The notes under the pieces: generated by a model
The model's database searches: none
What the model was told of the DNA's origin: nothing
What the model saw: only the letters and a program-made list of their open reading frames with translations
Program-made: the position numbers and the translations under genes
In this document: positions 3,078 through 38,068 of the stretch, in pieces
Layout: the number at the start of each line of letters is the position of its first letter
Numbering within the stretch: position 1 is the first letter of the stretch
Assembly (NCBI RefSeq): GCF_003334385.1
Contig: NZ_QOWN01000042.1
Strand: one strand, 5' to 3'
Length of the DNA stretch: 38,068 nt
Origin: Escherichia coli
GTDB taxonomy: Bacteria > Pseudomonadota > Gammaproteobacteria > Enterobacterales > Enterobacteriaceae

Positions 3078-4391
3078 TCAGGCACCAACAATATTGCGCA
3101 GATCAAACACCCGACACGCCTTGCCTTCTGAACGCGGGATACTGCCACAGTTAACGATCATCACATCGGTAGAGATCCCCACCATCGACTTAATCCGATG
3201 GCGCAGCTGGTGGCATACCTGGCAACGCTGCTCATGCGTCAATGTCAGGCTACTTTCTTTCAACTCCACTTTCACAGAAAGTGAATCAAGATGCCCCCGG
3301 CGGTTCACCTCCAGTTGGTAATGCGGCGATAAATGTTCGAATTTGACAATCTCTTCTTCCAGTTGTGACGGAAAGACATTTACACCGCGAATAATCAACA
3401 TGTCATCGCTGCGTCCGCTGATGCGATCCATGCGGCGCATAGTCCGCGCCGTTCCTGGTAACAGTCGGGTTAAATCACGCGTGCGGTAACGAATGACCGG
3501 CAATGCTTCTTTGGTCAGCGTGGTGAATAACAGTTCGCCATGTTCACCATCGGCAAGCGGTGTGCCGTCATGAGGATTAACAATTTCAGGATAGAAATGA
3601 TCTTCCCAAATGGTTGGGCCGTCGGTAGTTTCCAGACACTCCATCGCCACCCCCGGCCCCATCACTTCTGACAGGCCATAAATATCCAGTGCGGTGATCC
3701 CCAGGCGACGCTCAATCTCTTTACGCATGGCCTGTGTCCACGGCTCAGCACCAAATACTCCAACCCGCAGCGAGCAACCGCTGGCATCACCGCCCAACTG
3801 CCGCTCCAGCTCTTCAATCAGGTTAAGGCAATAAGATGGCGTAACCATGATCATATCTGGTTGAAAATCACGGATCAGTTGCGCTTGTTTTTCCGTCTGC
3901 CCGCCAGACATCGGGATCACCGTAGCGCCCAGACGTTCGGCACCATAGTGCGCACCCAGCCCACCAGTAAACAGGCCGTAACCATAGGCAACATGAATTT
4001 TGTCTTTGGGCGAGCCCCCTGCCGCACGCAAAGAACGCGCTACAATATTGGCCCAGTTATCAATATCGTTTTGCGTATAGCCGACAACTGTCGGTTTACC
4101 TGTGGTTCCCGAAGAAGCATGAATGCGCACCACTTGTTCCATTGGCACGGCAAAGGTGTCAAAGGGATAGTTGTCGCGCAGATCCTGTTTGGTGGTACAG
4201 GGAAATTTACGCAGGTCTGAAAGTTCCCTGAAATCATCAGGATGTACGCCTGCTGCGTCGAATTTGCGCCGATACATCGGCACATTTTCATACGCGTGTT
4301 TGAGCGTCCATTTCAGACGCTGTGTTTGCAACGCCTGTAACTCATCAACAGACGCGGTTTCAATCGGGTCAAGCTTTGTATTGGTTATCAT
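3078..4391 (-). CDS. paaK: PaaK, phenylacetate–CoA ligase
   Basis: ORF 3078..4475; start placed at internal ATG 4391 (MITNTKLDP...) giving 437 aa; adenylate-forming enzyme motifs. Confidence 0.85.
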   Translation of the reverse strand: MITNTKLDPIETASVDELQALQTQRLKWTLKHAYENVPMYRRKFDAAGVHPDDFRELSDLRKFPCTTKQDLRDNYPFDTFAVPMEQVVRIHASSGTTGKPTVVGYTQNDIDNWANIVARSLRAAGGSPKDKIHVAYGYGLFTGGLGAHYGAERLGATVIPMSGGQTEKQAQLIRDFQPDMIMVTPSYCLNLIEELERQLGGDASGCSLRVGVFGAEPWTQAMRKEIERRLGITALDIYGLSEVMGPGVAMECLETTDGPTIWEDHFYPEIVNPHDGTPLADGEHGELLFTTLTKEALPVIRYRTRDLTRLLPGTARTMRRMDRISGRSDDMLIIRGVNVFPSQLEEEIVKFEHLSPHYQLEVNRRGHLDSLSVKVELKESSLTLTHEQRCQVCHQLRHRIKSMVGISTDVMIVNCGSIPRSEGKACRVFDLRNIVGA

Positions 4392-6045: not shown

Positions 6046-7462
6046 AACCGCTCTCCAGAAGCGCCCGTTGGCGCAGCAATGAACATGGGCGATAGCGTTC
6101 TTCGCCATAGTGATGCTGTAGATTTTCAAGGAGCCTTAATATTCGCTGCCAGCCAAGTTGCGCTCCCCAGGCAAGTGGGCCATATGGATAATTCACCCCA
6201 AGACGCATGGCGGTATCGATATCCTGTTCAGAGGCCACGCCTTTTTGAAGCGCATCAAGGGCTTCATTGATGATCATTGCTACCGTTCGCCAAATCAGCA
6301 TTCCTGGGTAATCTGCAATTTGCAGCACTGTTTTGCCCTGCTGTTGCAGGTAATAAATGGCCTTGCGGGTCGCTGAGTCCGGGTTCACCGCTGCAGCAGC
6401 AATGGTCACCACCTTGCCCGCCATTTTATCGATCACTACCACCGGGCGTGCCAGTCGTATTGCCAGCGCCTGTGCCGTCTCGCCTTGTGTCTCAATCAAT
6501 AAAACATCGTCAATTTCCGTGACACCGTCACTTTTCTTTTCTACTTTCATTGGGCTAAAACTGTCGCTTACCGCTTCCAGGCCAACAACTGCCTCACGTT
6601 CCGCGCGCCAGTCGTACACGCCCAGCCCACTTTTCTTGCCCAACCGTCCACCAATCACCAGTTCCTGTTGCACCAGCGAAGGTAAAAAACGACGCTCCTG
6701 CCAGAAAGCGTTAAACACCGAACAGGTGACAGCAAAATTGACGTCCTGACCAATCAGATCGGTTAATTCCAGCGGCCCCATCGGGAAACCAGCGCCATCG
6801 CGAAGTGCAGCGTCAATCACTTCTGGTGCAGCAACCTGCTCTTCCAGTGCCCGCCAGGCCTCGGAATAATAAGGACGCGCAACACGGTTAACGATAAATC
6901 CAGGAGTCGAATGACAGCGCACAGGCTGCTTACCCCAACTCAACGTTAGTTCACACAACTGCTCAACAACTTCCGCCGCCGTTGCCAGCCCACTGACCAC
7001 CTCCACCAACTTCATCACCGGTGCCGGGTTAAAAAAATGCAGCCCCGCAACACGTTCAGGATTTTTTATCTCCGCAGCAATCGCGGTTATAGAGATTGAC
7101 GAAGTGTTAGTGGTCAATAGCGTTTGTGGCGGGCAAACTTCCGCCAGCTGTGCAAAGAGCGCTTTTTTGACTTCCAGACGTTCAGACGCCGCTTCAATGA
7201 CCAGGTCCGCAGCTGCCAGCGCGTGAATATCGGTCACCGGGATCAGGCGTTTCAATGTGCGTTCACAGGTTTCAGCAGTCAGTTTTCCCCGCGTCACGCG
7301 TGAATTTAGCCGCGCGTGTATCCCGTCGATTGCGCGGGTCAGCGCTTCAGCAGAAATGTCATACAGTAAAACCTGGTGTCCATGACTGGCAGCAACTTCA
7401 GCAATGCCTGCCCCCATGGTGCCGCTCCCAATCACTGCCACAGTTTGCACATTTATCATCAT
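6035..7462 (-). CDS. paaH: PaaH, NAD-dependent 3-hydroxyadipyl-CoA dehydrogenase
   Basis: ORF 6035..7558; start placed at MMINVQTVAVIGSGTMGAG (Rossmann GxGxxG), 475 aa. Confidence 0.85.
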   Translation of the reverse strand: MMINVQTVAVIGSGTMGAGIAEVAASHGHQVLLYDISAEALTRAIDGIHARLNSRVTRGKLTAETCERTLKRLIPVTDIHALAAADLVIEAASERLEVKKALFAQLAEVCPPQTLLTTNTSSISITAIAAEIKNPERVAGLHFFNPAPVMKLVEVVSGLATAAEVVEQLCELTLSWGKQPVRCHSTPGFIVNRVARPYYSEAWRALEEQVAAPEVIDAALRDGAGFPMGPLELTDLIGQDVNFAVTCSVFNAFWQERRFLPSLVQQELVIGGRLGKKSGLGVYDWRAEREAVVGLEAVSDSFSPMKVEKKSDGVTEIDDVLLIETQGETAQALAIRLARPVVVIDKMAGKVVTIAAAAVNPDSATRKAIYYLQQQGKTVLQIADYPGMLIWRTVAMIINEALDALQKGVASEQDIDTAMRLGVNYPYGPLAWGAQLGWQRILRLLENLQHHYGEERYRPCSLLRQRALLESGYES

Positions 7463-7463
7463 G

Positions 7464-8252
7464 CTATTTCCCCGTGAACTGCGGTGAGCGTTTAGCCAGG
7501 AACGCACTGACACCTTCACGATAATCTGCGCTCCGTCCGGCAAGTCGCTGATAGTCACGTTCCAGATCCAGTTGCGTATCGAGCGTATTGGTTTCAGCGC
7601 TATTTATCGCTTGCTTGATAAGTCCAAGACCAAATGTCGGTTGTGTCGCCAGATGCCGTGCCAGCTGTTGCGCGGTATCTGCCAGCGTTTCATCATCAAC
7701 AACCTGCCAGATCATCCCCCATTCGTGCGCCTGTTCAGCACTCAGTTGATTCCCCAGCAGTGCCAGCCCCATGGCGCGCGCTCGTCCGGCAACGCGTGGC
7801 AGTAACCAGGTTCCACCGCAATCGGGTATTAAGCCTAACTTACTAAACGCCATGACGAATTTTGCTGAACGGGCAGCAATAACGATGTCGCCCCCCAGTG
7901 CCAGTGTTGCGCCTGCCCCTGCCGCCACGCCATTGACTGCACAGATCACCGGTTTTGGCAGTTTTGCCAGGCGACGTACCAGTGGGTTATAGAAACGTTC
8001 AACTGACATCCCTAAATCCGGTGCGGGGCCTGTGGGATCAACGTTACGATCGTTAAGATCCTGACCAGCACAAAATCCGCGCCCGGCACCTGTAAGTAAC
8101 AGGCAACGGATAGTGTCGTCGCGCTCGACCTGTTTCAGGCACTCTGCCAGTTGTGCGTGCATCTCATCATTAAAACTGTTCAGGCGTTCCGGGCGGTTGA
8201 GCGTTAGTGTCATCACGCCCTTTTCTACATGACTGAGGATGAATTCCATCAT
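7464..8252 (-). CDS. paaG: PaaG, crotonase-family 1,2-epoxyphenylacetyl-CoA isomerase
   Basis: 262-aa enoyl-CoA hydratase/isomerase-fold ORF. Confidence 0.85.
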   Translation of the reverse strand: MMEFILSHVEKGVMTLTLNRPERLNSFNDEMHAQLAECLKQVERDDTIRCLLLTGAGRGFCAGQDLNDRNVDPTGPAPDLGMSVERFYNPLVRRLAKLPKPVICAVNGVAAGAGATLALGGDIVIAARSAKFVMAFSKLGLIPDCGGTWLLPRVAGRARAMGLALLGNQLSAEQAHEWGMIWQVVDDETLADTAQQLARHLATQPTFGLGLIKQAINSAETNTLDTQLDLERDYQRLAGRSADYREGVSAFLAKRSPQFTGK

Positions 8253-25731: not shown

Positions 25732-28700
25732 ATGATTACTATTGACGGTAATGGCGCGGTTGCTTCGGTCGCATTTCGCACCAGTGAAGTTATCGCCATC
25801 TACCCTATTACCCCCAGTTCCACGATGGCAGAACAGGCTGATGCCTGGGCCGGAAACGGCTTAAAGAACGTTTGGGGAGACACACCACGCGTGGTTGAAA
25901 TGCAGTCGGAAGCGGGTGCTATCGCTACCGTGCATGGCGCTTTGCAGACGGGTGCCCTTTCAACATCGTTTACGTCATCGCAGGGTTTGCTGCTGATGAT
26001 CCCGACGCTGTACAAACTGGCAGGCGAACTAACACCGTTTGTCCTGCATGTAGCGGCACGTACCGTTGCCACACATGCACTCTCTATTTTTGGCGATCAT
26101 TCCGACGTTATGGCGGTGCGCCAGACGGGTTGCGCGATGTTGTGTGCAGCAAACGTCCAGGAAGCGCAAGACTTTGCTCTCATTTCGCAAATCGCGACGC
26201 TGAAAAGCCGCGTGCCATTTATTCATTTCTTTGATGGTTTCCGCACGTCCCACGAAATCAATAAAATTGTCCCGCTGGCCGATGACACGATTCTTGATCT
26301 CATGCCGCAGGTCGAAATTGATGCTCATCGCGCCCGGGCACTCAACCCGGAACATCCGGTGATCCGCGGTACGTCCGCCAATCCTGACACTTATTTCCAG
26401 TCTCGCGAAGCCACCAACCCATGGTACAACGCGGTCTATGACCATGTTGAACAGGCGATGAATGATTTCTCTGCCGCGACAGGTCGTCAGTATCAGCCGT
26501 TTGAATATTACGGGCATCCGCAAGCGGAACGGGTGATTATCCTGATGGGCTCTGCCATTGGCACCTGTGAAGAAGTGGTTGATGAATTGCTAACCCGTGG
26601 CGAAAAAGTTGGCGTGCTGAAAGTTCGCCTGTACCGCCCCTTCTCCGCTAAACATTTACTGCAAGCTCTGCCGGGATCCGTACGCAGCGTGGCGGTACTG
26701 GACAGAACCAAAGAACCCGGTGCCCAGGCAGAACCGCTCTATCTGGATGTAATGACCGCACTGGCAGAAGCCTTTAATAATGGCGAGCGCGAAACTCTGC
26801 CCCGTGTCATTGGTGGGCGCTATGGTCTTTCATCCAAAGAATTTGGCCCAGACTGTGTACTGGCGGTATTTGCCGAGCTCAACGCGGCTAAACCGAAAGC
26901 GCGCTTTACGGTTGGTATTTACGATGATGTGACCAATCTGTCACTGCCGTTGCCGGAAAACACCCTGCCAAACTCGGCGAAACTGGAAGCCTTGTTTTAT
27001 GGCCTTGGTAGTGATGGCAGCGTTTCCGCGACCAAAAACAATATCAAGATTATCGGTAATTCCACGCCGTGGTACGCACAGGGCTATTTTGTTTACGACT
27101 CCAAAAAGGCGGGCGGCCTGACGGTTTCTCACCTTCGAGTGAGCGAACAGCCGATTCGTTCCGCTTATCTCATTTCCCAGGCTGATTTTGTTGGCTGCCA
27201 CCAGTTGCAGTTTATCGATAAATATCAGATGGCTGAGCGTTTAAAACCTGGCGGCATTTTCCTGCTCAACACGCCGTACAGCGCAGATGAAGTGTGGTCG
27301 CGCTTGCCGCAAGAAGTTCAGGCCGTGTTAAACCAGAAAAAAGCGCGCTTCTATGTGATTAACGCGGCGAAAATCGCCCGCGAATGTGGCCTGGCGGCCC
27401 GTATTAATACCGTCATGCAGATGGCTTTTTTCCATCTGACGCAAATTCTGCCTGGCGATAGCGCCCTCGCAGAATTGCAGGGTGCGATTGCCAAAAGTTA
27501 CAGTAGCAAAGGCCAGGATCTGGTGGAACGCAACTGGCAGGCTCTGGCGCTGGCGCGTGAATCCGTAGAAGAAGTTCCGTTGCAACCGGTAAATCCGCAC
27601 AGCGCCAATCGACCGCCAGTGGTTTCCGATGCCGCCCCTGATTTCGTGAAAACCGTAACCGCTGCGATGCTCGCCGGGCTTGGTGACGCCCTCCCCGTTT
27701 CGGCGCTGCCGCCAGACGGCACCTGGCCGATGGGCACTACGCGCTGGGAAAAACGCAATATCGCCGAAGAGATCCCCATCTGGAAAGAGGAACTCTGTAC
27801 CCAATGTAACCACTGCGTTGCCGCTTGCCCACACTCAGCTATTCGCGCAAAAGTGGTGCCGCCTGAAGCGATGGAAAACGCCCCTGCCAGCCTGCATTCG
27901 CTGGATGTGAAATCGCGTGATATGCGCGGGCAGAAATATGTCTTGCAGGTGGCACCGGAAGATTGCACCGGTTGTAACCTGTGCGTCGAAGTTTGCCCGG
28001 CGAAAGACCGTCAGAATCCAGAGATTAAAGCCATCAATATGATGTCTCGCCTGGAACATGTCGAAGAAGAGAAAATCAATTACGATTTCTTCCTCAACCT
28101 GCCAGAAATCGACCGTAGCAAACTGGAACGTATTGATATTCGTACATCGCAGCTGATTACACCGCTGTTTGAATATTCAGGTGCTTGCTCCGGTTGTGGC
28201 GAGACGCCGTATATTAAATTACTGACTCAGCTCTATGGCGACCGGATGTTGATCGCTAACGCCACTGGCTGTTCTTCAATTTATGGCGGTAACCTGCCCT
28301 CTACACCGTATACCACCGATGCCAACGGTCGTGGGCCGGCATGGGCGAACTCTCTATTTGAAGATAATGCCGAATTTGGCCTTGGTTTCCGCCTGACGGT
28401 CGATCAACACCGTGTCCGCGTGCTGCGTCTGCTGGATCAATTTGCCGATAAAATCCCGGCGGAATTACTGACGGCGTTGAAATCAGACGCCACGCCAGAG
28501 GTTCGTCGTGAACAGGTTGCAGCTTTACGCCAGCAACTCAACGATGTTGCCGAAGCACATGAACTGCTACGTGATGCAGATGCACTGGTGGAAAAATCAA
28601 TCTGGCTGATTGGTGGTGATGGCTGGGCTTACGATATCGGCTTTGGCGGTCTGGATCATGTATTGAGTTTGACGGAAAACGTCAACATTCTGGTGCTGGA

Positions 28701-29256
28701 TACGCAATGCTATTCCAACACCGGTGGTCAGGCGTCGAAAGCGACACCGCTGGGTGCAGTAACTAAATTTGGCGAGCACGGCAAACGTAAAGCGCGTAAA
28801 GATCTTGGCGTCAGTATGATGATGTACGGTCATGTTTATGTGGCGCAGATTTCTCTCGGCGCGCAGCTGAACCAGACGGTGAAAGCGATTCAGGAAGCGG
28901 AAGCGTATCCGGGGCCATCGCTGATCATTGCTTATAGCCCGTGTGAAGAGCATGGTTACGATCTGGCACTCAGCCACGACCAGATGCGCCAACTCACAGC
29001 TACCGGCTTCTGGCCGCTATATCGCTTTGATCCGCGTCGTGCCGATGAAGGCAAACTGCCGCTGGCCTTGGATTCACGCCCGCCGTCAGAAGCACTGGAA
29101 GAAACGTTACTTCACGAGCAACGTTTCCGTCGGCTGAATTCGCAGCAGCCAGAAGTGGCAGAACAGTTATGGAAAGATGCTGCAGCTGATTTGCAAAAAC
29201 GCTATGACTTCCTGGCACAAATGGCCGGAAAAGCGGAAAAAAGCAACACCGATTAA
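25732..29256 (+). CDS. ydbK: Pyruvate:ferredoxin/flavodoxin oxidoreductase (single-polypeptide PFOR with two 4Fe-4S ferredoxin motifs and TPP domain)
   Basis: 1174-aa ORF; CxxCxxCxxxCP motifs (CTQCNHCVAACP, CTGCNLCVEVCP) and C-terminal TPP-binding region. Confidence 0.9.
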   Translation: MITIDGNGAVASVAFRTSEVIAIYPITPSSTMAEQADAWAGNGLKNVWGDTPRVVEMQSEAGAIATVHGALQTGALSTSFTSSQGLLLMIPTLYKLAGELTPFVLHVAARTVATHALSIFGDHSDVMAVRQTGCAMLCAANVQEAQDFALISQIATLKSRVPFIHFFDGFRTSHEINKIVPLADDTILDLMPQVEIDAHRARALNPEHPVIRGTSANPDTYFQSREATNPWYNAVYDHVEQAMNDFSAATGRQYQPFEYYGHPQAERVIILMGSAIGTCEEVVDELLTRGEKVGVLKVRLYRPFSAKHLLQALPGSVRSVAVLDRTKEPGAQAEPLYLDVMTALAEAFNNGERETLPRVIGGRYGLSSKEFGPDCVLAVFAELNAAKPKARFTVGIYDDVTNLSLPLPENTLPNSAKLEALFYGLGSDGSVSATKNNIKIIGNSTPWYAQGYFVYDSKKAGGLTVSHLRVSEQPIRSAYLISQADFVGCHQLQFIDKYQMAERLKPGGIFLLNTPYSADEVWSRLPQEVQAVLNQKKARFYVINAAKIARECGLAARINTVMQMAFFHLTQILPGDSALAELQGAIAKSYSSKGQDLVERNWQALALARESVEEVPLQPVNPHSANRPPVVSDAAPDFVKTVTAAMLAGLGDALPVSALPPDGTWPMGTTRWEKRNIAEEIPIWKEELCTQCNHCVAACPHSAIRAKVVPPEAMENAPASLHSLDVKSRDMRGQKYVLQVAPEDCTGCNLCVEVCPAKDRQNPEIKAINMMSRLEHVEEEKINYDFFLNLPEIDRSKLERIDIRTSQLITPLFEYSGACSGCGETPYIKLLTQLYGDRMLIANATGCSSIYGGNLPSTPYTTDANGRGPAWANSLFEDNAEFGLGFRLTVDQHRVRVLRLLDQFADKIPAELLTALKSDATPEVRREQVAALRQQLNDVAEAHELLRDADALVEKSIWLIGGDGWAYDIGFGGLDHVLSLTENVNILVLDTQCYSNTGGQASKATPLGAVTKFGEHGKRKARKDLGVSMMMYGHVYVAQISLGAQLNQTVKAIQEAEAYPGPSLIIAYSPCEEHGYDLALSHDQMRQLTATGFWPLYRFDPRRADEGKLPLALDSRPPSEALEETLLHEQRFRRLNSQQPEVAEQLWKDAAADLQKRYDFLAQMAGKAEKSNTD

Positions 29257-29284
29257 ATGCTCTGGATAAGGATTATCCAATTCT

Positions 29285-29316
29285 AAAAAAAAAAGCCCGG
29301 ACGACTGTTCGGGCTT
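29285..29316. terminator. Bidirectional intrinsic terminator shared by ydbK (+) and micC (−): A-run, agcccgg/ccgggct hairpin, T-run
   Basis: Hairpin with flanking A10 and T5 runs read directly. Confidence 0.75.
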
Positions 29317-29396
29317 GTCTTTTTATATGTTGGAAAATCAGTGGCAATGCAATGGCCCAACAGAAAATAAAATCTGTGACAATAAAGGCATATAAC
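29287..29396 (-). ncRNA. micC: MicC small regulatory RNA (Hfq-dependent repressor of ompC translation)
   Basis: Minus strand reads GTTATATGCCTTTATTGTCACAGATTTTATTTTCTGTTGGGCCATTGCATTGCCACTGATTTTCCAACATATAAAAAGACAAGCCCGAACAGTCGTCCGGGCTTTTTTTTT, matching the MicC sequence as I recall it; located between ydbK and ompN as described for micC. Confidence 0.85.
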
Positions 29397-29623
29397 CCGC
29401 GCAGAATAACGTATAGCAAATTAAAAGTATAATTTTTATTTTGTATGTATTATCTTCGATACATTCACCAGACTTATTATCATTTCAGAGGAATTATTTG
29501 ATTAAGGTTTTACTTAAGGCGTAACAAATGATATTTATCGGCTAACTGAACTTCTCCTTTAGGATGTTTTCACTCCCCGAAATGGGGATAAAAGGCAAAT
29601 AAAATAACTAAAGGATTTATTCA

Positions 29624-30757
29624 ATGAAAAGCAAAGTACTGGCACTTTTAATTCCTGCCCTGCTCGCCGCAGGTGCTGCACATGCAGCCGAAGTTTATAA
29701 TAAAGACGGCAACAAATTAGATCTGTATGGCAAAGTTGATGGCCTGCATTATTTTTCTGATAATTCAGCGAAAGATGGCGACCAGAGCTATGCGCGTCTG
29801 GGTTTTAAAGGCGAAACCCAAATTAACGATCAACTCACTGGCTACGGTCAATGGGAATACAATATTCAGGCAAACAACACTGAATCTTCAAAAAACCAGT
29901 CATGGACCCGTCTGGCATTTGCCGGGCTGAAATTTGCAGATTACGGTTCTTTCGATTACGGACGTAATTATGGCGTAATGTACGACATCGAAGGCTGGAC
30001 CGATATGCTGCCTGAATTTGGCGGTGACTCTTATACCAATGCAGACAACTTTATGACTGGTCGAGCCAATGGCGTCGCGACTTATCGTAATACTGATTTC
30101 TTCGGTCTGGTAAATGGTCTGAACTTCGCGGTGCAGTATCAAGGTAACAACGAAGGAGCCAGTAATGGTCAGGAAGGCACCAACAACGGACGTGATGTTC
30201 GCCATGAAAACGGTGACGGCTGGGGTCTTTCCACAACATATGATTTAGGCATGGGCTTTAGCGCTGGTGCGGCATACACCTCTTCTGACCGCACCAATGA
30301 CCAGGTTAACCATACTGCGGCGGGTGGTGATAAAGCAGACGCGTGGACTGCTGGGCTAAAATACGATGCTAACAATATTTACCTGGCAACCATGTATTCA
30401 GAAACGCGTAATATGACCCCGTTTGGCGACAGCGATTATGCTGTGGCAAACAAAACCCAGAATTTTGAAGTCACTGCACAGTACCAGTTTGATTTTGGTC
30501 TGCGTCCGGCAGTCTCTTTCCTGATGTCTAAAGGCCGTGACCTGCACGCTGCGGGTGGTGCAGACAACCCGGCAGGTGTTGATGATAAAGATCTGGTTAA
30601 ATACGCCGATATTGGCGCGACTTACTATTTCAATAAAAACATGTCCACCTACGTTGACTATAAAATCAACCTGTTGGATGAAGATGACAGCTTCTACGCT
30701 GCCAATGGCATCTCTACCGATGATATTGTCGCTTTAGGTCTGGTTTATCAGTTCTAA
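29624..30757 (+). CDS. ompN: Outer membrane porin N (OmpC/OmpF-family general porin)
   Basis: 377-aa ORF with signal peptide ([21 protein letters not shown]) and C-terminal ...LVYQF beta-barrel signature. Confidence 0.9.
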
Positions 30758-30765
30758 ATCCTCCT

Positions 30766-30789
30766 GCCCGCTGTTATGGCGGGCTTTTT
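30766..30789 (+). terminator. Rho-independent terminator after ompN (gcccgc / gcgggc stem, T5)
   Basis: Hairpin plus T-run 8 bp after the stop. Confidence 0.7.
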
Positions 30790-30816
30790 CTGCTTATTCT
30801 TCCTCCTTTGATCTAA

Positions 30817-31332
<516 letters not shown>

Positions 31333-31339
31333 CACTAAC

Positions 31340-31364
31340 GCCCGCACATTGCTGCGGGCTTTTT
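31340..31364 (+). terminator. Rho-independent terminator after uspF (gcccgca / tgcgggc stem, T5)
   Basis: Hairpin plus T-run 8 bp after the stop. Confidence 0.7.
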
Positions 31365-31660
31365 GATTCATTTCGCAAATGTGCTGACATTTTCCCCTCT
31401 AATCCGTACCATACACGCCACAGTTTTTTATATCAGATTTCTTATGCTGGGCGTTCCGGCATGACGCATACTCTTCTGATGCCATATAACGAATTGAGTC
31501 GCTTTTAAATGTCGCAAAATCAAGAAATTAGTAAGAAAGAACAATACAACCTGAACAAGTAAGGGCAAAAATCACAACTCTCTGACTCATAAGTATTTTA
31601 CTTATTTTTCAATGTGTTAAATATCATCAGCGACAACAATAAGCTACGATAACCCACTCT

Positions 31661-31710
31661 TTTTTTGCCCCTTTTTTGCCCCTTTTGCAGCGCTTTGCCC
31701 CATTTTTGCC
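31661..31710. repeat. Degenerate ~11-bp tandem repeat (TTTTTTGCCCC ×2, then TTTTGCAGCGC, TTTGCCCCA, TTTTTGCC) in the uspF–sitA intergenic region
   Basis: Read directly. Confidence 0.6.
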
Positions 31711-31822
31711 ATCAACAATTTTCCTCATCAAGTCATTTCAAAGCCTAATAGGTACCCTACTTTTTTCCTCAGTACCACGTCGCCAGCAGGAAACAACCTA
31801 ATCCCGGTTCGGATCTAAAATT

Positions 31823-31841
31823 GCTAATGATAATCATTTTC
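31823..31841. promoter_or_regulatory. Fur box (gCTAATGATAATCATTtTC; 17/19 match to GATAATGATAATCATTATC) in the sitA promoter
   Basis: Match to the canonical Fur consensus ~80 bp upstream of sitA. Confidence 0.7.
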
Positions 31842-31863
31842 ATTTTGTGTTGCTTATGCTATA

Positions 31864-31885
31864 AAACATAGCCGTTGCTATGTTT
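31864..31885. promoter_or_regulatory. MntR operator: perfect palindrome AAACATAGC-cgtt-GCTATGTTT between the Fur box and the sitA start
   Basis: Matches the MntR box palindrome described for mntH/sitA promoters (from memory). Confidence 0.7.
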
Positions 31886-31917
31886 GTTCTAATTTTGCTC
31901 ACTATAGGTACTAAATT

Positions 31918-32832
31918 ATGTACTCAATAAAAAAAGTAACCATGCTCTTGGGGTGCCTCGCCCTCACCTGCTCGATCGCATTTCAGGCGAGTGCAACTGA
32001 AAAATTCAAGGTCATTACAACATTTACCATCATCGCAGATATGGCCAAAAACGTGGCTGGAGATGCTGCAGAAGTCTCATCCATAACCAAGCCCGGTGCA
32101 GAAATTCATGAGTATCAGCCTACCCCTGGCGATATTAAACGTGCGCAGGGGGCACAACTGATTCTCGCCAATGGTATGAATCTGGAATTGTGGTTCCAAC
32201 GCTTTTACCAGCATCTTAATGGGGTTCCAGAAGTAATTGTCTCTTCGGGTGTGACGCCAGTAGGGATCACTGAAGGCCCCTATGAGGGCAAACCTAACCC
32301 CCATGCCTGGATGTCGCCAGATAATGCTCTGATTTACGTCGATAATATTCGTGATGCGTTGATAAAATACGATCCGGCAAATGCACAAACCTACCAACGT
32401 AATGCCGATACTTATAAAGCCAAGATTACCCAAACCCTTGCCCCCCTGCGTAAGCAGATTGCTGAACTCCCTGAGAATCAGCGATGGATGGTCACCAGTG
32501 AAGGGGCTTTTTCTTATCTCGCACGCGATTTGGGGCTAAAAGAGCTTTATCTGTGGCCGATTAATGCCGATCAACAAGGCACGCCGCAGCAGGTACGTAA
32601 GGTTGTTGATATGGTGAAGAAAAATCATATCCCGGCAGTCTTTAGCGAGAGTACGATTTCCGATAAACCAGCGCGTCAGGTTGCGCGTGAAACCGGCGCG
32701 CACTACGGCGGTGTACTCTATGTCGATTCCCTGAGCACAGAAAACGGCCCGGTACCTACGTATATCGACCTTCTGAAGGTTACTACCAGTACGCTGGTAC
32801 AGGGAATTAAAGCCGGGAAAAGGGAGAAATAA
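31918..32832 (+). CDS. sitA: Periplasmic Mn2+/Fe2+-binding protein of an ABC importer (cluster A-I substrate-binding protein)
   Basis: 304-aa ORF with signal peptide; first of four translationally coupled genes in SBP–ATPase–permease–permease order. Confidence 0.85.
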
Positions 32833-33659
32833 TGATGCAATCTGCGGGCATTGTCGTTAATGATGTTACTGTCACCTGGCGTAACGGGCACACAGCACTG
32901 CGCGATGCATCCTTCACAGTACCAAGTGGATCTATTGCCGCTCTGGTTGGGGTAAACGGTTCCGGAAAATCGACGTTGTTTAAAGCGATTATGGGATTTG
33001 TGCGTCTGACCAGCGGAAAGATATCTGTTCTGGGTATTCCCACGCGACAGGCGCTACAGAAAAACCTGGTTGCCTACGTCCCTCAGTCAGAAGAGGTTGA
33101 CTGGTCATTTCCTGTACTAGTGGAAGATGTGGTGATGATGGGCCGCTATGGGCACATGGGTATGTTGCGTATAGCCAAAAAGAGGGATCGTCAGATTGTC
33201 ACCGATGCGCTGGAACGTGTCGATATGGTGGATTTTCGCCATCGACAAATCGGCGAGCTTTCCGGTGGACAAAAGAAACGCGTCTTTCTGGCGAGAGCGA
33301 TTGCACAGCAGGGTGATGTGATCCTGCTGGATGAACCTTTTACCGGCGTTGATGTGAAAACCGAAGCGAAAATCATCAGCCTGTTGAGGGAGTTACGCGC
33401 GGAAGGCAAGACGATGCTTGTCTCAACGCACAATCTCGGCTCAGTCACGACATTTTGCGATTATACGGTCATGGTCAAAGGCACCGTCCTGGCAAGCGGG
33501 CCGACAGACACCACTTTTACAGCCGAGAACCTGGAGCTGGCTTTTAGCGGCGTACTGCGCCATGTCACACTTAACGGCTCGGAAGAAAGCATTATTACTG
33601 ACGATGAACACCCTTTTGTGGCACATCGACCGTCAGCGGTGCAGAGGGAAGCAAGATGA
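32832..33659 (+). CDS. sitB: ABC transporter ATP-binding protein (Walker [10 protein letters not shown], signature LSGGQKKR, Walker B ILLDEP)
   Basis: 275-aa ORF; motifs read directly. Confidence 0.85.
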
Positions 33660-34513
33660 ACGTGCTACTGGAACCCTTCAGCTATGAATATATGCTCAAT
33701 GCGATGTGGGTCTCGGCGATGGTCGGCGGTCTCTGCGCTTTCCTGTCATGCTATCTGATGCTAAAAGGCTGGTCGCTGATTGGCGATGCGCTGTCGCACT
33801 CTATTGTCCCGGGTGTTGCGGGGGCATATATGCTGGGGCTTCCGTTTTCTCTGGGAGCCTTCTTTTCCGGCGGACTGGCAGCGGGCAGCATGCTGTTTCT
33901 TAACCAACGCACTCGCTTAAAAGAAGATGCCATCATCGGCCTGATCTTCTCCTCCTTTTTTGGCCTGGGGCTGTTTATGGTGTCATTGAACCCGACATCC
34001 GTGAACATTCAGACCATCGTCCTGGGCAATATTCTGGCAATCGATCCGGCGGATATCCTGCAACTCACTATCATTGGCATTCTCTCGATCATCGTGCTTT
34101 TTTTCAAATGGAAAGATCTTATGGTGACCTTTTTCGACGAGAATCACGCCCGTGCTATTGGATTGCATCCGGGCAGATTAAAAATCCTCTTCTTCACCCT
34201 GCTGTCAGTTTCGACCGTTGCGGCGCTGCAAACGGTTGGTGCCTTTCTGGTGATCTGTCTGGTGGTGACTCCCGGTGCAACAGCATGGTTGTTAACCGAT
34301 CGTTTTCCCCGCCTGCTCATAATTGCTGTAACTATTGGCAGTGTAACCAGTTTCCTCGGCGCGTGGGTCAGTTACTTTCTGGACGGCGCGACAGGTGGAA
34401 TCATCGTGGTGGCGCAGACACTGCTGTTTCTTTTAGCATTTGTATTTGCGCCCACCCATGGGCTTTTGGCAAATCGTCGGCGTGCGCATAAAGCGCTGGA
34501 GGATCGCTCATGA
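33656..34513 (+). CDS. sitC: ABC transporter permease (Mn/Fe importer)
   Basis: 285-aa hydrophobic multi-helix ORF; ATGA overlap with sitB. Confidence 0.85.
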
Positions 34514-35367
34514 TGGCATTATTACTGGAGCCACTGCAGTTCACCTTTATGAGTCACGCACTGCTGATTTCACTGGTAGTTTCCATACCCTGTGCGCTGC
34601 TGTCGGTCTTTCTGGTCCTGAAAGGTTGGGCACTGATGGGTGACGCGATGAGTCATGCGGTTTTTCCTGGTATTGTGCTTGCCTGGATTCTGAGGTTACC
34701 TCTGGCTACAGGGGCATTCGTCGCCGGAGTATTCTGCGCGGTGGCGACGGGATACCTGAAAGACAACAGCCGAATCAAGCAAGATACAGTGATGGGGATT
34801 GTTTTTTCTGGCATGTTTGCCGCAGGTCTGATCTTGTATATTGCAGTCAAACCAGACGTACATCTTGACCATATTCTTTTCGGCGACATGCTCGGGGTAA
34901 CCATCGGCGATATAATCCAGACGGTGATTATTGCCGGGCTGGTTACACTTGTTATTAGCGTAAAATGGCGGGATTTTTTGCTGTTCAGCTTTGATTATCA
35001 ACAGGCGCAGGTAAGCGGTTTGCATACGAGATGTCTGCATTATGGGCTGCTGTGCATGGTCTCTCTGACCATTGTGGCGACGCTGAAAGCGGTAGGTATC
35101 ATTCTCTCCATTTCTCTGCTCATTGCGCCTGGCGCCATTGCGGTACTCCTGACACAACGCTTTCATATTGCGCTCCTACTGGCGATTGGCATATCGGTAA
35201 TAGTGTCAATGACTGGTGTCTGGTTGTCCTTTTTTATCGACAGTGCACCAGCTCCGACGATTGTCGTCTTATTCGCGGTTGTGTTCATCATGACGTTCAC
35301 CGTTACCAGCATCAACGCACGCACAAAGGGAAACACCCATACACAGGATTTGTCATCACCCAATTAG
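34510..35367 (+). CDS. sitD: ABC transporter permease (Mn/Fe importer), paralogous to SitC
   Basis: 285-aa hydrophobic ORF; ATGA overlap with sitC. Confidence 0.85.
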   Translation: MMALLLEPLQFTFMSHALLISLVVSIPCALLSVFLVLKGWALMGDAMSHAVFPGIVLAWILRLPLATGAFVAGVFCAVATGYLKDNSRIKQDTVMGIVFSGMFAAGLILYIAVKPDVHLDHILFGDMLGVTIGDIIQTVIIAGLVTLVISVKWRDFLLFSFDYQQAQVSGLHTRCLHYGLLCMVSLTIVATLKAVGIILSISLLIAPGAIAVLLTQRFHIALLLAIGISVIVSMTGVWLSFFIDSAPAPTIVVLFAVVFIMTFTVTSINARTKGNTHTQDLSSPN

Positions 35368-35531
35368 CACAACATCCGAGGACAGCATCGTCCGCTGGCC
35401 CACAGAAGTCCGGAAAGTCATGGAAGGTCGTTGTTGGGAGGAGGTACAAATTCTCTCATGCAAAAAATACGTAAAATCGATAATAGCTGGAAATAATTCA
35501 ATACATGCACTCTCGAAAGTGCATCAGCCAA

Positions 35532-35565
35532 CCGCAGAACGTTATTGCATACAACGTTTCTGCGG
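35532..35565. other. Imperfect inverted repeat (ccgcagaacgtt ... aacgtttctgcgg) in the short sitD–tfa spacer; possible terminator or junction element
   Basis: Read directly; no clear U-tract. Confidence 0.3.
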
Positions 35566-35579
35566 CATAATCCCAATGA

Positions 35580-36164
35580 TTACTCCCTGACAGGGTTCGT
35601 AGGCCACTCAATATCAGGTGCAGTTGATGTATCAACACGGTTCAGCAACACCCGATACTTTTTCCAGGCTTCCAGCAACAAGGTTTCTTCCTCCGTTGCG
35701 ATTTCCAGATCTGCAGCATCCTGAAGCGGCGCAATATGCTCACTGGCTACCTGCATCAGGCTGTTTTTTGTTTCTTCCGCCTCCCGGATCCGGAACAGTT
35801 TTTCTGCTTCTGCATCTTTCACCCAGGCTGTGCCGTTCCACTTCTGAAACTCCCCTTCCGGGGATAACCAGGTAACATTTTCCGGTAACGGACCGAGTTC
35901 AGAAATAAATAACGCGTCGCCGGAAGCCACGTCATAGACGGTTTTTCCCCGATGATCTTCAACGAGATGCCACGATGCCTCATCACTGTTGAAAACAGCC
36001 ACGAAGCCTGCCGGAATATCTGGTGGTGCAATATCGGTACTGTTTGCTGGCAGACCTGTATGAGGCGGAATATATGCATCACCTTCACCAATAAATTCAT
36101 TAGTTCCGGCCAGCAGATTATAAATTTTTATGGTCCGTGCTTGTTCACTCATTCTGAATGCCAT
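35580..36164 (-). CDS. tfa: Phage tail fibre assembly (chaperone) protein, Tfa family (TfaR-like)
   Basis: 194-aa [27 protein letters not shown]..., closely resembling lambdoid Tfa proteins as I recall them; ATG overlaps the stf stop (TAATG). Confidence 0.8.
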
Positions 36165-38068
36165 TATGCGAGCCTCACAATATAGTTAAATGCGATGTTT
36201 TTGACGGTGTTTTCCGCGTTACCAGCAGCGTTAACGGTGATGGTGTGTCCATGTGAACCAATCGCAACAGAGTGCGTATGAGCACCAATACCGACAGTAT
36301 GCGCGTGTGCACCCGCAGATGCTGCTGTGCCGGACAGTGAGTGTGTATGGTTTCCTTCTGAAGATGATTTACCTACCCATTGGGAGGTGCCACTGGTTAA
36401 TGAGCCACTGATACCAACCTGATTAGTCCCGCTAACTTGAGTACTCCCTGCCGGAAACATTCCAGTAGGTTGACTCCCGCTATTCGTTCTGGGCCCAGTC
36501 TGACTATGTTGGTGGGCCCCAGCTGAACTTGTAGAGCCGCTCAGACTGTGCGTATGCGCCCCGGTGTTATTCGTGGATTTAGTGCCGTAATCAAACGACG
36601 ATGTGGTTTTCGTCCCCAAATCCGTACTGGATGCGCTGGCGCTGTGGGTATGCGATTTAATGCCGTCCTGTTCCTGAGACAATACGGCCCGACCACTGGC
36701 AGGTTTGCCCTTAATCGTCCAGCCACGCATATCAGGGATCACGCCTGACGGATAAGCCGCTGCAAGTTTCGGGTATGCAGATTTGTCAAAAGCCTGCCCC
36801 TGCATCAGGGCATAGCCAGACGGAACGGTATCTGATGGCCACGGGATTGGTGCGCCAGGCGGATAAAACTGCTCTGATGGCGTATAGAGTGAATAAACTG
36901 TACCGTCCGTTAACCCTTCCGGCTTATTAGCAGAATATGCTGGTGACGTATGAATCGTCACGCTGGCATTACTGGTATAATCCCATTGAATATTTACACC
37001 AGTCGCATAATTTCCGATTGCAACGTAAATATCGTAAGTATCACCAGATGTATTAACCCAGGCAAAATTTGTAAACCCTGTCAATGTGCGCTGCCATAAA
37101 GCACCAGTAATCCCCTTCGGATTACCATTACCTGCACGCAAAACAAGTTCAGATATACCTGCCTGTTGAGGTGACCCCACGTTAAATCCAGCGCCACCAA
37201 TCAACGTAATTGAAACAACAGAACTCGCCTGTGGCATGGTTACCGTTGCTAATTTGAACCAACCAGCACCACCGCTGAATGACATTGTTGTTGAGTTAAG
37301 CGTACCAATATCTTTCGGCGTCAGTGTTATATCAGCTGAAAGCGCCTTACCATTCACCTTACGGGCAGAAGGTACCCGACCATTCGCATTATCATTAGCT
37401 GCTTTCACTGCTTTCGGTGTCGCGGCAAGCGTTTCAGATGCGCTGTTGGTTGCACTACTGAGCTGGACAATTCCTTTTTGTGTTGTCGTAGCGTCCTGAG
37501 CAGTATATTTCCCGTTAGCAAGGTCATAGGCTGCCTTTACCGACTTTGGCGTTGCCGCCAGCATTTCAGATGTGCTGTTGGTCGCGTTGCTAAGCTGAAC
37601 TATCCCTTTCTGTGCTGTCGTTGCATCCTGTGCGGTGTATTTCCCGTTAGCCAGCTCATACGCGGCCTTAACGGCTTTTGGCGTTGCCGCCAGTGACTCG
37701 GAAGTGCTGTTAGTCGCACTGCTGAGCTGTACTATCCCCTTTTTCGTCGTGCTCGCATCCTCAAGCGCCACGGAGGATGCAATATCCTCTGCCCATTTTG
37801 CCGCTGTCTCAGCGCGCGTTGCTGCAGATTCCGCCGTACTTTTGCTCTGAGCTGCTGCCGTCGCACTGCCAGCAGCCTCTGTCGCCTTCGTGGATGCCGT
37901 CGTGGCGCTACCCTTCGCTGCTGACGCCTGTCTGGTCGCCTCATCTTTTGAAGCAGACGCAGATGATGCCGATGACGACGCCGAACTGGCTGACGATGCG
38001 GCAGCCGTTTTTGAGGATTCTGCGCTGGTTTCCGACGCTTTCGCGTTCGTTTCGGATGTCTTCGCTGC
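36164..38068 (-). CDS. stf: Phage side tail fibre protein (StfR-like), C-terminal ~635 codons; 5' end lies beyond the window
   Basis: Listed ORF 36164..37771 starts at a GTG; the frame stays open to the window edge (…[25 protein letters not shown]… Ala/Ser/Thr-rich repeats). C-terminal part is Gly/Ser/Thr-rich with multiple His-x-His motifs. Confidence 0.8.
37400..37771 (-). repeat. Three tandem ~123-bp (41-aa) repeats inside stf (…[44 protein letters not shown]…)
   Basis: Repeats visible in the translation and nucleotide sequence with period ~123 nt. Confidence 0.7.

Follow-up and report, generated by a model that had tools for sequence, protein, structure and literature searches.

Analysis of the window, a stretch of 38,068 nucleotides from an Escherichia coli contig (NZ_QOWN01000042.1; assembly GCF_003334385.1), showed that its sitABCD operon is accessory prophage cargo, as is already known for sit. 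Very probably, a lambdoid prophage of the Rac family has integrated in the 5' end of ttcA and carries sitABCD, as a self-regulated passenger ("moron"), in its non-essential region next to the att site. Carriage of sit on a prophage is textbook lysogenic conversion, in which a temperate phage supplies metal scavenging to its host, here apparently as part of the host's Fur and MntR regulons. Phage carriage also helps account for the wide spread of sit in gut and extraintestinal E. coli. The function and regulation of sit, its carriage on prophages and plasmids, and the exact arrangement (in EAEC 042, 2010) have all been published; the present analysis contributes no new biology, but it places the breakpoints against K-12 to the base pair and counts how often each alternative state of the ttcA locus occurs in the population.

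All four sit genes were intact and overlapping, with uspF on one side and the convergent prophage genes tfa and stf on the other. The last core gene ahead of the prophage, uspF (30898..31332, + strand), matched the UspF equivalog NF011581 with 301.6 bits, was 99.9% identical to its K-12 counterpart, and was followed by an intrinsic terminator at 31340-31359 in the terminator scan. Next came the displaced original 5' end of ttcA (ttcC, 31509..31559, + strand), which encodes MSQNQEISKKEQYNLNK* and contains the Rac attR, a Rac right-end segment common to K-12 (31559..31711, no strand), and the sit regulatory region (31712..31917, + strand). The operon itself, also on the + strand, comprised sitA (31918-32832; 304 aa, periplasmic Mn2+/Fe2+-binding protein), sitB (32832-33659; 275 aa, ABC ATPase), sitC (33656-34513; 285 aa, membrane permease subunit), and sitD (34510-35367; 285 aa, second membrane permease subunit). 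The sitD-tfa junction (35368..35601, no strand), described from blastn boundaries and the spacer fold, was followed on the - strand by the tail fibre assembly gene tfa of a Rac-type prophage (35580-36164), convergent with sit, and by the 3' part of the side tail fibre gene stf (36164..38068), which runs past the window end. Stop/start overlaps of 1, 4, and 4 nt in the ORF listing fit with translational coupling of the sit genes. The ORFs thus agreed with the initial annotation, which had placed four translationally coupled genes of 304, 275, 285, and 285 aa between uspF and tfa/stf, with a sitD-tfa spacer of 212 bp (tfa begins at 35580). The uspF-sitA spacer, given there as 586 bp, was corrected to 585 bp (31333-31917, uspF ending at 31332). 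In collinear genomes, RefSeq names the four genes sitA, sitB, sitC, and sitD, the SitA-D lengths are identical, and tfa, 95.9% identical to K-12 tfaR, is named tfaR. A frameshift in stf, suspected from a 535-aa ORF beginning at 37771, was ruled out, the frame being open from 38068 down to 36164; the gene was collinear with the 986-aa stf of the relative LR-51, apart from a mosaic patch at 36380-36518.

Collinearity with K-12 extended through uspF, the Rac attR (ttcC), and a 152-bp stretch of Rac DNA, which matched its K-12 counterpart at 99.6-99.9% identity, and then broke at 31711/31712. By blastn, K-12 homology returned at 35602 in the 3' end of tfaR, which sets the right breakpoint at 35601/35602, 22 bp inside the 3' end of tfa. 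The expectation that the junctions would fall in the two spacers was therefore borne out on the left and not strictly on the right. The K-12 order is tfaR-pinR-ynaE-ynaM-ttcC-uspF, without sit, in agreement with the initial annotation, which had pinR/ynaE at the end of Rac in that strain; judged by this alignment, the pinR-ynaE-ynaM segment of K-12 is replaced within the prophage by a 3.9-kb sit module. A 26-bp attR core (31533-31558) was identical to K-12 attL, the stretch 31516-31558 matched the K-12 ttcA/attL core, and the K-12 annotation places ttcC and the Rac end at the homologous position. The sit module begins 152 bp inward of this core. The order given in the initial annotation, with sit between uspF and prophage tail genes, was correct, but this is not a border between core and prophage, as sit is enclosed by the prophage, with tail fibre genes (tfa/stf from 35580) on one side and the att site on the other. 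Direct repeats of TTTGCCCC were present at 31664-31671, 31675-31682, and 31694-31701, one further copy (31703-31710) is incomplete and another (31562-31570) is inverted, and K-12 attL has two further TTTGCCCC copies between the intR stop and the core. The Rac segment 31559..31711, which carries these repeats, is a probable att arm.

Of 5426 complete E. coli genomes, 502 had the left junction of the window type and 844 a Rac end of the K-12 type; in 2486, the uspF-ttcA site was empty. The empty-site genomes were 100% identical to the window as far as 31558 and continued into an intact ttcA. These counts upheld the initial reading of an accessory, prophage-associated insertion: sit is not universal at this position (502/5426 with the junction, 2486/5426 empty), and the K-12 alignment does not continue through sit. 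They also indicate that sit is dispensable for the phage, with pinR-ynaE-ynaM at this place in K-12 Rac and 844 K-12-type vs. 502 sit-type ends among the genomes. The suggested check of base composition and codon usage was uninformative, as no anomaly was observed (sit GC 0.494 vs. 0.507 for core genes, GC3 within the range of the neighbours).

In LR-51, which was 99% identical to and collinear with the window, the element is a full-length Rac of ~53 kb with all morphogenesis and lysis genes present and intR next to ttcA, in the order ttcA-intR-xisR-recET-racR-lysis-terminase-capsid-tail-stf-tfa-sitDCBA-attR-uspF. The initial annotation had seen no integrase, invertase, or IS element flanking sit, and no flanking IS element was found in the window; no integrase is seen probably because intR would lie beyond the window at the opposite prophage end, as it does in the relatives, ~50 kb off, and the K-12 invertase pinR is among the genes replaced by sit. 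K-12 Rac shares with the window the ttcA site, attR/ttcC, and the 152-bp arm with TTTGCCCC repeats, and its tfaR/stfR have homologues there (93-97% identity), but it holds a 1.8-kb pinR-ynaE-ynaM segment in place of the 3.9-kb sit module and has been reduced by deletion to a 23-kb remnant, while the element in close relatives of the window is full-length at ~53 kb. The uspF-sit-tail fibre arrangement is already published for prophage 042p3 (ROD21) of EAEC 042, where the ~50-kb prophage, flanked by a direct repeat, was described as having sit for cargo at its tail end (Chaudhuri et al., 2010; PMC2808357). This prophage has the same site and order (nifJ-ompN-uspF-attR-sitABCD-tfa remnant-tail fibres) and was 98.8% identical to the window over 31200-35699. 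Past 35699 the tail-fibre modules differ, EAEC 042 having a tfa remnant and other fibre genes and the window an intact tfaR-like and an stfR-like gene. In such lysogens, the sit operon would ride with the phage via IntR/XisR site-specific recombination at ttcA, and in the lineage of the window the cassette would have taken the place of the pinR-ynaE-ynaM segment of K-12 Rac. Recombination at the cassette flanks would in addition transfer sit, as a ~3.65-kb unit, among lambdoid phages and plasmids.

The regulatory region suggests how the passenger would be controlled. A Fur box was predicted at 31823-31841 (2 mismatches to consensus; 0.02 chance matches expected) and an MntR box at 31864-31885, a perfect palindrome AAACATAGC-N4-GCTATGTTT (0.01 expected by chance). 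The putative sit promoter, with hexamers read from the sequence, has its -35 (TTTTCA) at 31837-31842 and its -10 (TATAAA) at 31860-31865. The host repressors Fur-Fe2+ and MntR-Mn2+ would occupy the boxes over the -35 and -10/+1 regions, so that the lysogen would express sit only under iron or manganese scarcity, independently of phage gene expression. Both this repression and a fitness benefit of sit are inferred from published near-identical or orthologous systems. The Rfam scan of 28500-38068 revealed no Mn riboswitch or other RNA in the sit leader, and its only matches were MicC (29279-29399) and the Rfam family IS009 inside tfa (35623-35821). Downstream, neither the terminator scan nor folding detected a T-run intrinsic terminator after sitD in the spacer, for which reason sit fits only half of the strict definition of a moron (own promoter and own terminator). 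The spacer folds into two hairpins without a T-run, at about 35508-35525 and 35527-35565, and this hairpin-bearing backbone sequence also follows tfa in sit-less prophages.

The same cassette was found on other mobile elements. Overall, sit was present in 2384/5426 complete E. coli genomes, in 1683 chromosomal and 1060 plasmid places, and "PAI sit" has been reported from several places in the chromosome (PMC7545054). At 97.5% identity, the cassette also lies between the side tail fibre genes and attP/int of cultured phage 21 and of about 25 further genomes of lambdoid phages, including ev/Lambda_ isolates, Perceval, and PhiR phages; in UTI89, the prophage at icd has it in the equivalent att-proximal region. 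Among infant-gut lambda phages, sitABCD was reported on 70%, always with a Fur box, and sit-carrying phages were cultured (Mathieu et al., 2020; PMC6969025). The best phage match, ON032529 ("Salmonella phage SPF_0923"; 99.7% over both junctions), was rejected as a free phage, since its record includes host ydbK-ompN-uspF and thus reflects a prophage prediction with misplaced ends; phage carriage is instead supported by phage 21 and by the infant-gut phages grown in culture. Phage 21 and the infant-gut Lambdavirus (OL657228; PMC6969025) resemble the window in the cassette (31732-35387, 97.5% identity; Sit proteins with 275-299 identical residues), in the orientation of sit, which converges on the tail fibre genes, in its placement within the non-essential stretch from these genes to attP, and in the upstream Fur box. 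They differ in the integrase, in the att site (icd, not ttcA), and in extra small ORFs between sit and att. A 136-bp backbone segment "X" (35414-35549) lies downstream of sit in the window but upstream of it in these phages. On the left, the match begins at 31732 for phage 21 and UTI89 and at 31705 for the plasmid copy (97.8% DNA identity for E. coli plasmid copies); by blastn, the shared cassette ends at 35387-35396.

It may be proposed that the ~3.65-kb cassette (31732-35387) is a discrete exchange unit, captured independently by phages with unrelated integrases (Rac/ttcA, phage 21/icd) and placed immediately past the integrase arm sites. The position of X on opposite sides of sit could then be a footprint of a specific recombination route. 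On this reading, sit in Rac lysogens might also receive read-through independent of Fur and MntR from the native ttcA promoter, which is left orphaned ahead of ttcC (31509) and faces sit without a predicted terminator on the way. We regard this extended proposal as unlikely.

Less likely still, and clearly improbable, is that the cassette came on its own, through an IS or transposon, as an island inserted into an already resident, possibly defective Rac remnant, and not as cargo of an infectious phage. Shigella sit islands are reportedly IS-rich, and IS1 and a Tn3 remnant lie on either side of the plasmid cassette, whose left-flank match to the window extends 27 bp (31705-31731) further than that of phage 21. 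At the two boundaries of the module in the window, however, no flanking IS or transposase was found, and a repeat search around the left cassette boundary (31480-31760) gave the TTTGCCCC arm repeats and no terminal inverted repeat or target-site duplication. Moreover, the relative LR-51 carries a complete set of morphogenesis and lysis genes in its Rac, and cultured infectious lambdoid phages hold the cassette at the equivalent position. That sitABCD is ancestral core DNA of the uspF locus, deleted in K-12 and other strains and never prophage-borne, might fit a GC (0.494) and GC3 (0.49-0.59) indistinguishable from the flanking core genes and the frequency of sit (2384/5426), but it is hardly credible and already effectively refuted by the 2486 genomes running from uspF straight to an intact ttcA, with identity ending exactly at the att core (31558), as well as by the location of sit beyond ttcC/attR and 152 bp of Rac DNA, the restriction of the junction to 502 genomes, and the occurrence of the same cassette on plasmids and in another prophage, located at icd.

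As cargo of the Rac-family prophage, sitABCD would encode a substrate-binding protein-dependent ABC importer for Mn2+ and Fe2+, its specificity being inferred from published work on almost identical systems of E. coli and on orthologues in Salmonella and Shigella (PMC3852070). The characterised SitABCD and YfeABCD systems perform Mn2+/Fe2+ ABC import under dual Fur and MntR repression; their transport, repression, and virulence roles have been reviewed, and the metal preference of Sit was reported to shift with genetic background (PMC3852070). The Sit systems of Salmonella SPI-1, Shigella flexneri, and APEC chi7122 pAPEC-1 and YfeABCD of Y. pestis share the four-gene architecture of the window, whereas the vehicles of the characterised Sit systems (SPI-1 island, IS-rich island, ColV-type plasmid) differ from its Rac prophage. 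The best solved homologue of SitA was Y. pestis YfeA (5uxs; E = 9e-125, residues 24-297), with which the motifs EIHEY, NPHAW, TSEGA, and YVDSL are conserved, and the SitA translation begins with a visible signal-like sequence. By analogy with YfeA, we take H64, H129, E195, and D270 to be the putative metal ligands. SitA, exported to the periplasm, would bind metal through this His/His/Glu/Asp site and, once loaded, dock onto the permease pair SitC/SitD, with import driven by ATP hydrolysis at SitB. SitB scored 591.7 bits against the Mn/Fe ABC ATPase equivalog NF011630 (cutoff 393) and contained the Walker A (GVNGSGKS), signature (LSGGQ), and Walker B (VILLDEP) motifs. SitC and SitD matched the SloB, AztB, and ZnuB metal ABC permease models (E = 1e-49 to 1e-55), below the genus-specific cutoffs of those models. 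SitA, SitC, and SitD all scored under the curated cutoffs of the closest NCBIfam models, built for other genera; their names come from the RefSeq annotation and from 94-99% identity to other E. coli Sit proteins. Compared with the phage 21, UTI89, and plasmid copies, 282-283 of the 285 residues of SitC and 268-275 of the 285 residues of SitD were identical.

The four sit genes were recovered as described in the initial annotation, with agreement in ORF positions, lengths, and overlaps: sitA (31918-32832, 304 aa), sitB (32832-33659, 275 aa), sitC (33656-34513, 285 aa), and sitD (34510-35367, 285 aa) all lie on the + strand, with successive stop/start overlaps of 1, 4, and 4 nt. Upstream of sit are ompN (29624-30757) and uspF (30898-31332), the latter followed by a terminator at 31340-31359; downstream of and convergent with sit are tfa (35580-36164) and stf, which starts at 36164 and has a frame that is open as far as the window end. 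The sitD-tfa spacer was 212 bp, as annotated, and the uspF-sitA spacer was 585 rather than 586 bp. The family assignments of the sit genes are secure. SitB scored 591.7 bits against the Mn/Fe ABC ATPase equivalog NF011630 (curated cutoff 393) and its Walker A, Walker B, and signature motifs were all canonical, while SitA, SitC, and SitD matched metal-type SBP and permease families. The closest solved structure to SitA was that of Yersinia pestis YfeA (E = 9e-125). SitA retains all four of the YfeA motifs holding the His/His/Glu/Asp metal ligands, and these residues are its putative ligands. In collinear genomes, sitA, sitB, sitC, and sitD are also the RefSeq names of these genes. Two RNA families were matched in the neighborhood: the MicC sRNA gene (RF00121, 122.2 bits) at 29279-29399 on the - strand, between ydbK/nifJ and ompN as in K-12, and IS009 (RF02111), with a strong full-length Rfam match (226.9 bits) at 35623-35821 on the - strand, within the 3' half of the tfa CDS.

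The boundaries of the module were determined by direct alignment of the window against K-12 MG1655. Identity was 99.9% over 28516-31711, comprising ydbK-micC-ompN-uspF, the ttcC pseudogene, and 152 bp of the cryptic prophage Rac. Homology broke at 31711/31712 and resumed only at 35602, 22 bp within the 3' end of tfaR, indicating that a 3.9-kb sit module occupies the place of the 1.8-kb pinR-ynaE-ynaM segment of K-12 and that the two genomes are not collinear through sit. The 17-codon ttcC at 31509-31559, which encodes MSQNQEISKKEQYNLNK*, was originally the 5' end of ttcA and has been displaced from it. Within it, a 26-bp stretch (31533-31558) was identical to the K-12 attL core, and prophage-free genomes such as MLI106K4 were 100% identical to the window through exactly 31558, after which they continue into intact ttcA. 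The attR core and the end of empty-site identity at the same base place the operon within the prophage, adjoining attR. The neighbors initially named, uspF and the tail genes, were correct, but sit lies inside the prophage rather than between it and the core genome.

Positions 9499-36360 were collinear, at 99.0% identity, with strain LR-51, in which Rac is full-length at about 53 kb; the window itself runs only into stf. The order in LR-51 is ttcA, intR, xisR, ralR, recT, recE, kilR, sieB, racR, ydaS/T/U/V, the iteAS defense pair, lysis genes, trkG, terminase, capsid, tail, J, lom, stf, tfa, sitDCBA, attR, and uspF. No integrase had been visible initially because it lies approximately 50 kb away at the opposite prophage end, outside the window. 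Further cargo in the LR-51 Rac comprises the anti-phage pair iteA/iteS and the K+ transporter gene trkG (13177-16570 and 6293-7750 of the LR-51 sequence), so sit is not the only cargo locus in this prophage family; there are several others. The stf genes of the window and LR-51 were 97-99% identical except for a mosaic patch at 36380-36518, where they differed completely; the patch falls among the His-rich repeats of the C-terminal part and probably represents a swap in receptor specificity.

The segment 31732-35387 had a 97.5%-identical counterpart in cultured phage 21 (OL657228) and in about 25 further lambdoid phage genomes, among them infant-gut isolates and ECOR-induced phages. There it is oriented as in the window and located between the side tail fiber genes and attP/int; a prophage at icd in UTI89 shows this phage-21-type arrangement as well. 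Across phage, prophage, and plasmid contexts, the Sit proteins differed by only 2-17 residues. A 136-bp backbone segment found downstream of sitD here (35414-35549) is upstream of sitA in phage 21 (8875-9006) and UTI89, with 86% identity, and 57 bp from the 3' end of tfa (35643-35699) directly follow sit in phage 21 (12651-12707). These permuted segments indicate that the Rac-type and phage-21-type lineages share a backbone but have the cassette at different positions in it, which suggests that separate recombination events placed it in each. The copies of the cassette on virulence plasmids (31705-35396) adjoin iuc and are flanked by IS1 and a Tn3 remnant. IS-mediated acquisition describes these plasmid copies, but an IS-mediated island that landed in a Rac remnant is unlikely here since IS scars are absent and the cassette is carried by infectious phages. 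One record deposited as a phage genome, "Salmonella phage SPF_0923" (ON032529.1), matched both junctions at 99.7%; it contains E. coli-type host sequence (a ydbK fragment, ompN, and uspF) beyond attR, and thus looks like a prophage prediction with wrongly set ends, not the genome of a packaged phage.

Among 5426 complete E. coli genomes, 2384 carried a sit operon anywhere, in 1683 chromosomal and 1060 plasmid places. The exact left junction (attR, Rac arm, and sit promoter) occurred in 502 genomes and the right junction, sitD to tfa, in 305; a Rac right end of K-12 type was found in 844, and the uspF-ttcA site was empty in 2486. The position is thus not universal, and sit at uspF/ttcA is clearly accessory, as initially proposed. 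An ancestral core sit operon that was lost in K-12 is excluded, as the empty sites are bounded by att. The GC and codon-usage comparison initially suggested was without signal for the sit module in GC or GC3. The locus of EAEC 042 was the same as that in the window (98.8% identity), and its arrangement nifJ-ompN-uspF-sitABCD-tail fiber genes has already been published in identical order (Chaudhuri et al., 2010; PMC2808357); a review also places the sit island at several different positions in E. coli and Shigella chromosomes (PMC7545054). Taken as a whole, the initial finding was real and its interpretation correct, and sitABCD at uspF in a Rac-type prophage is already known.

Between the att core and sit, the 152-bp attR side contains three to four direct repeats of TTTGCCCC plus one inverted copy (31562-31710). 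Two further copies are present on the attL side in K-12 (3974-3993 of the K-12 sequence), past the intR stop codon but before the core, so that copies occur on either side of the Rac att core. Judging from this layout, the repeats are putative arm-type sites for IntR. K-12 and the sit-bearing sequence diverge at 31711, directly after the last copy; if the repeats are arm sites, the cargo would start at the first base past the functional att arm. The stretch 31420-31559 comprises ttcC and, just upstream of it, the native ttcA promoter region, which faces sit at a distance of about 360 bp. As no terminator-like site was predicted between them, read-through into sit is conceivable.

Upstream of sitA, a putative Fur box (31823-31841) had 2 mismatches to the 19-bp consensus, with 0.02 chance matches expected, and a putative MntR box (31864-31885) was a perfect palindrome; both overlap plausible -35/-10 hexamers. 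An Rfam scan detected neither a riboswitch nor any other family in the sit leader, and no terminator was detected 3' of sitD. Sit systems of Salmonella, Shigella, and APEC mediate high-affinity Mn2+/Fe2+ import under MntR and Fur repression, and contribute to peroxide protection and virulence (PMC3852070). By analogy, the present allele would be expected to share this transport and regulation. Of infant-gut lambda phages, 70% carried sitABCD, each with a Fur box (Mathieu et al.; PMC6969025). Lysogenic conversion by a metal-importer cargo is the best explanation of the locus: a Rac-type phage would bring the importer into its host, where host Fur and MntR would switch sit on when Fe or Mn is limiting. 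A palindromic GATGATGATGATCATCATC run in the paa region (836-854) also matched the Fur consensus on both strands, with 3 mismatches, probably by chance within coding sequence.
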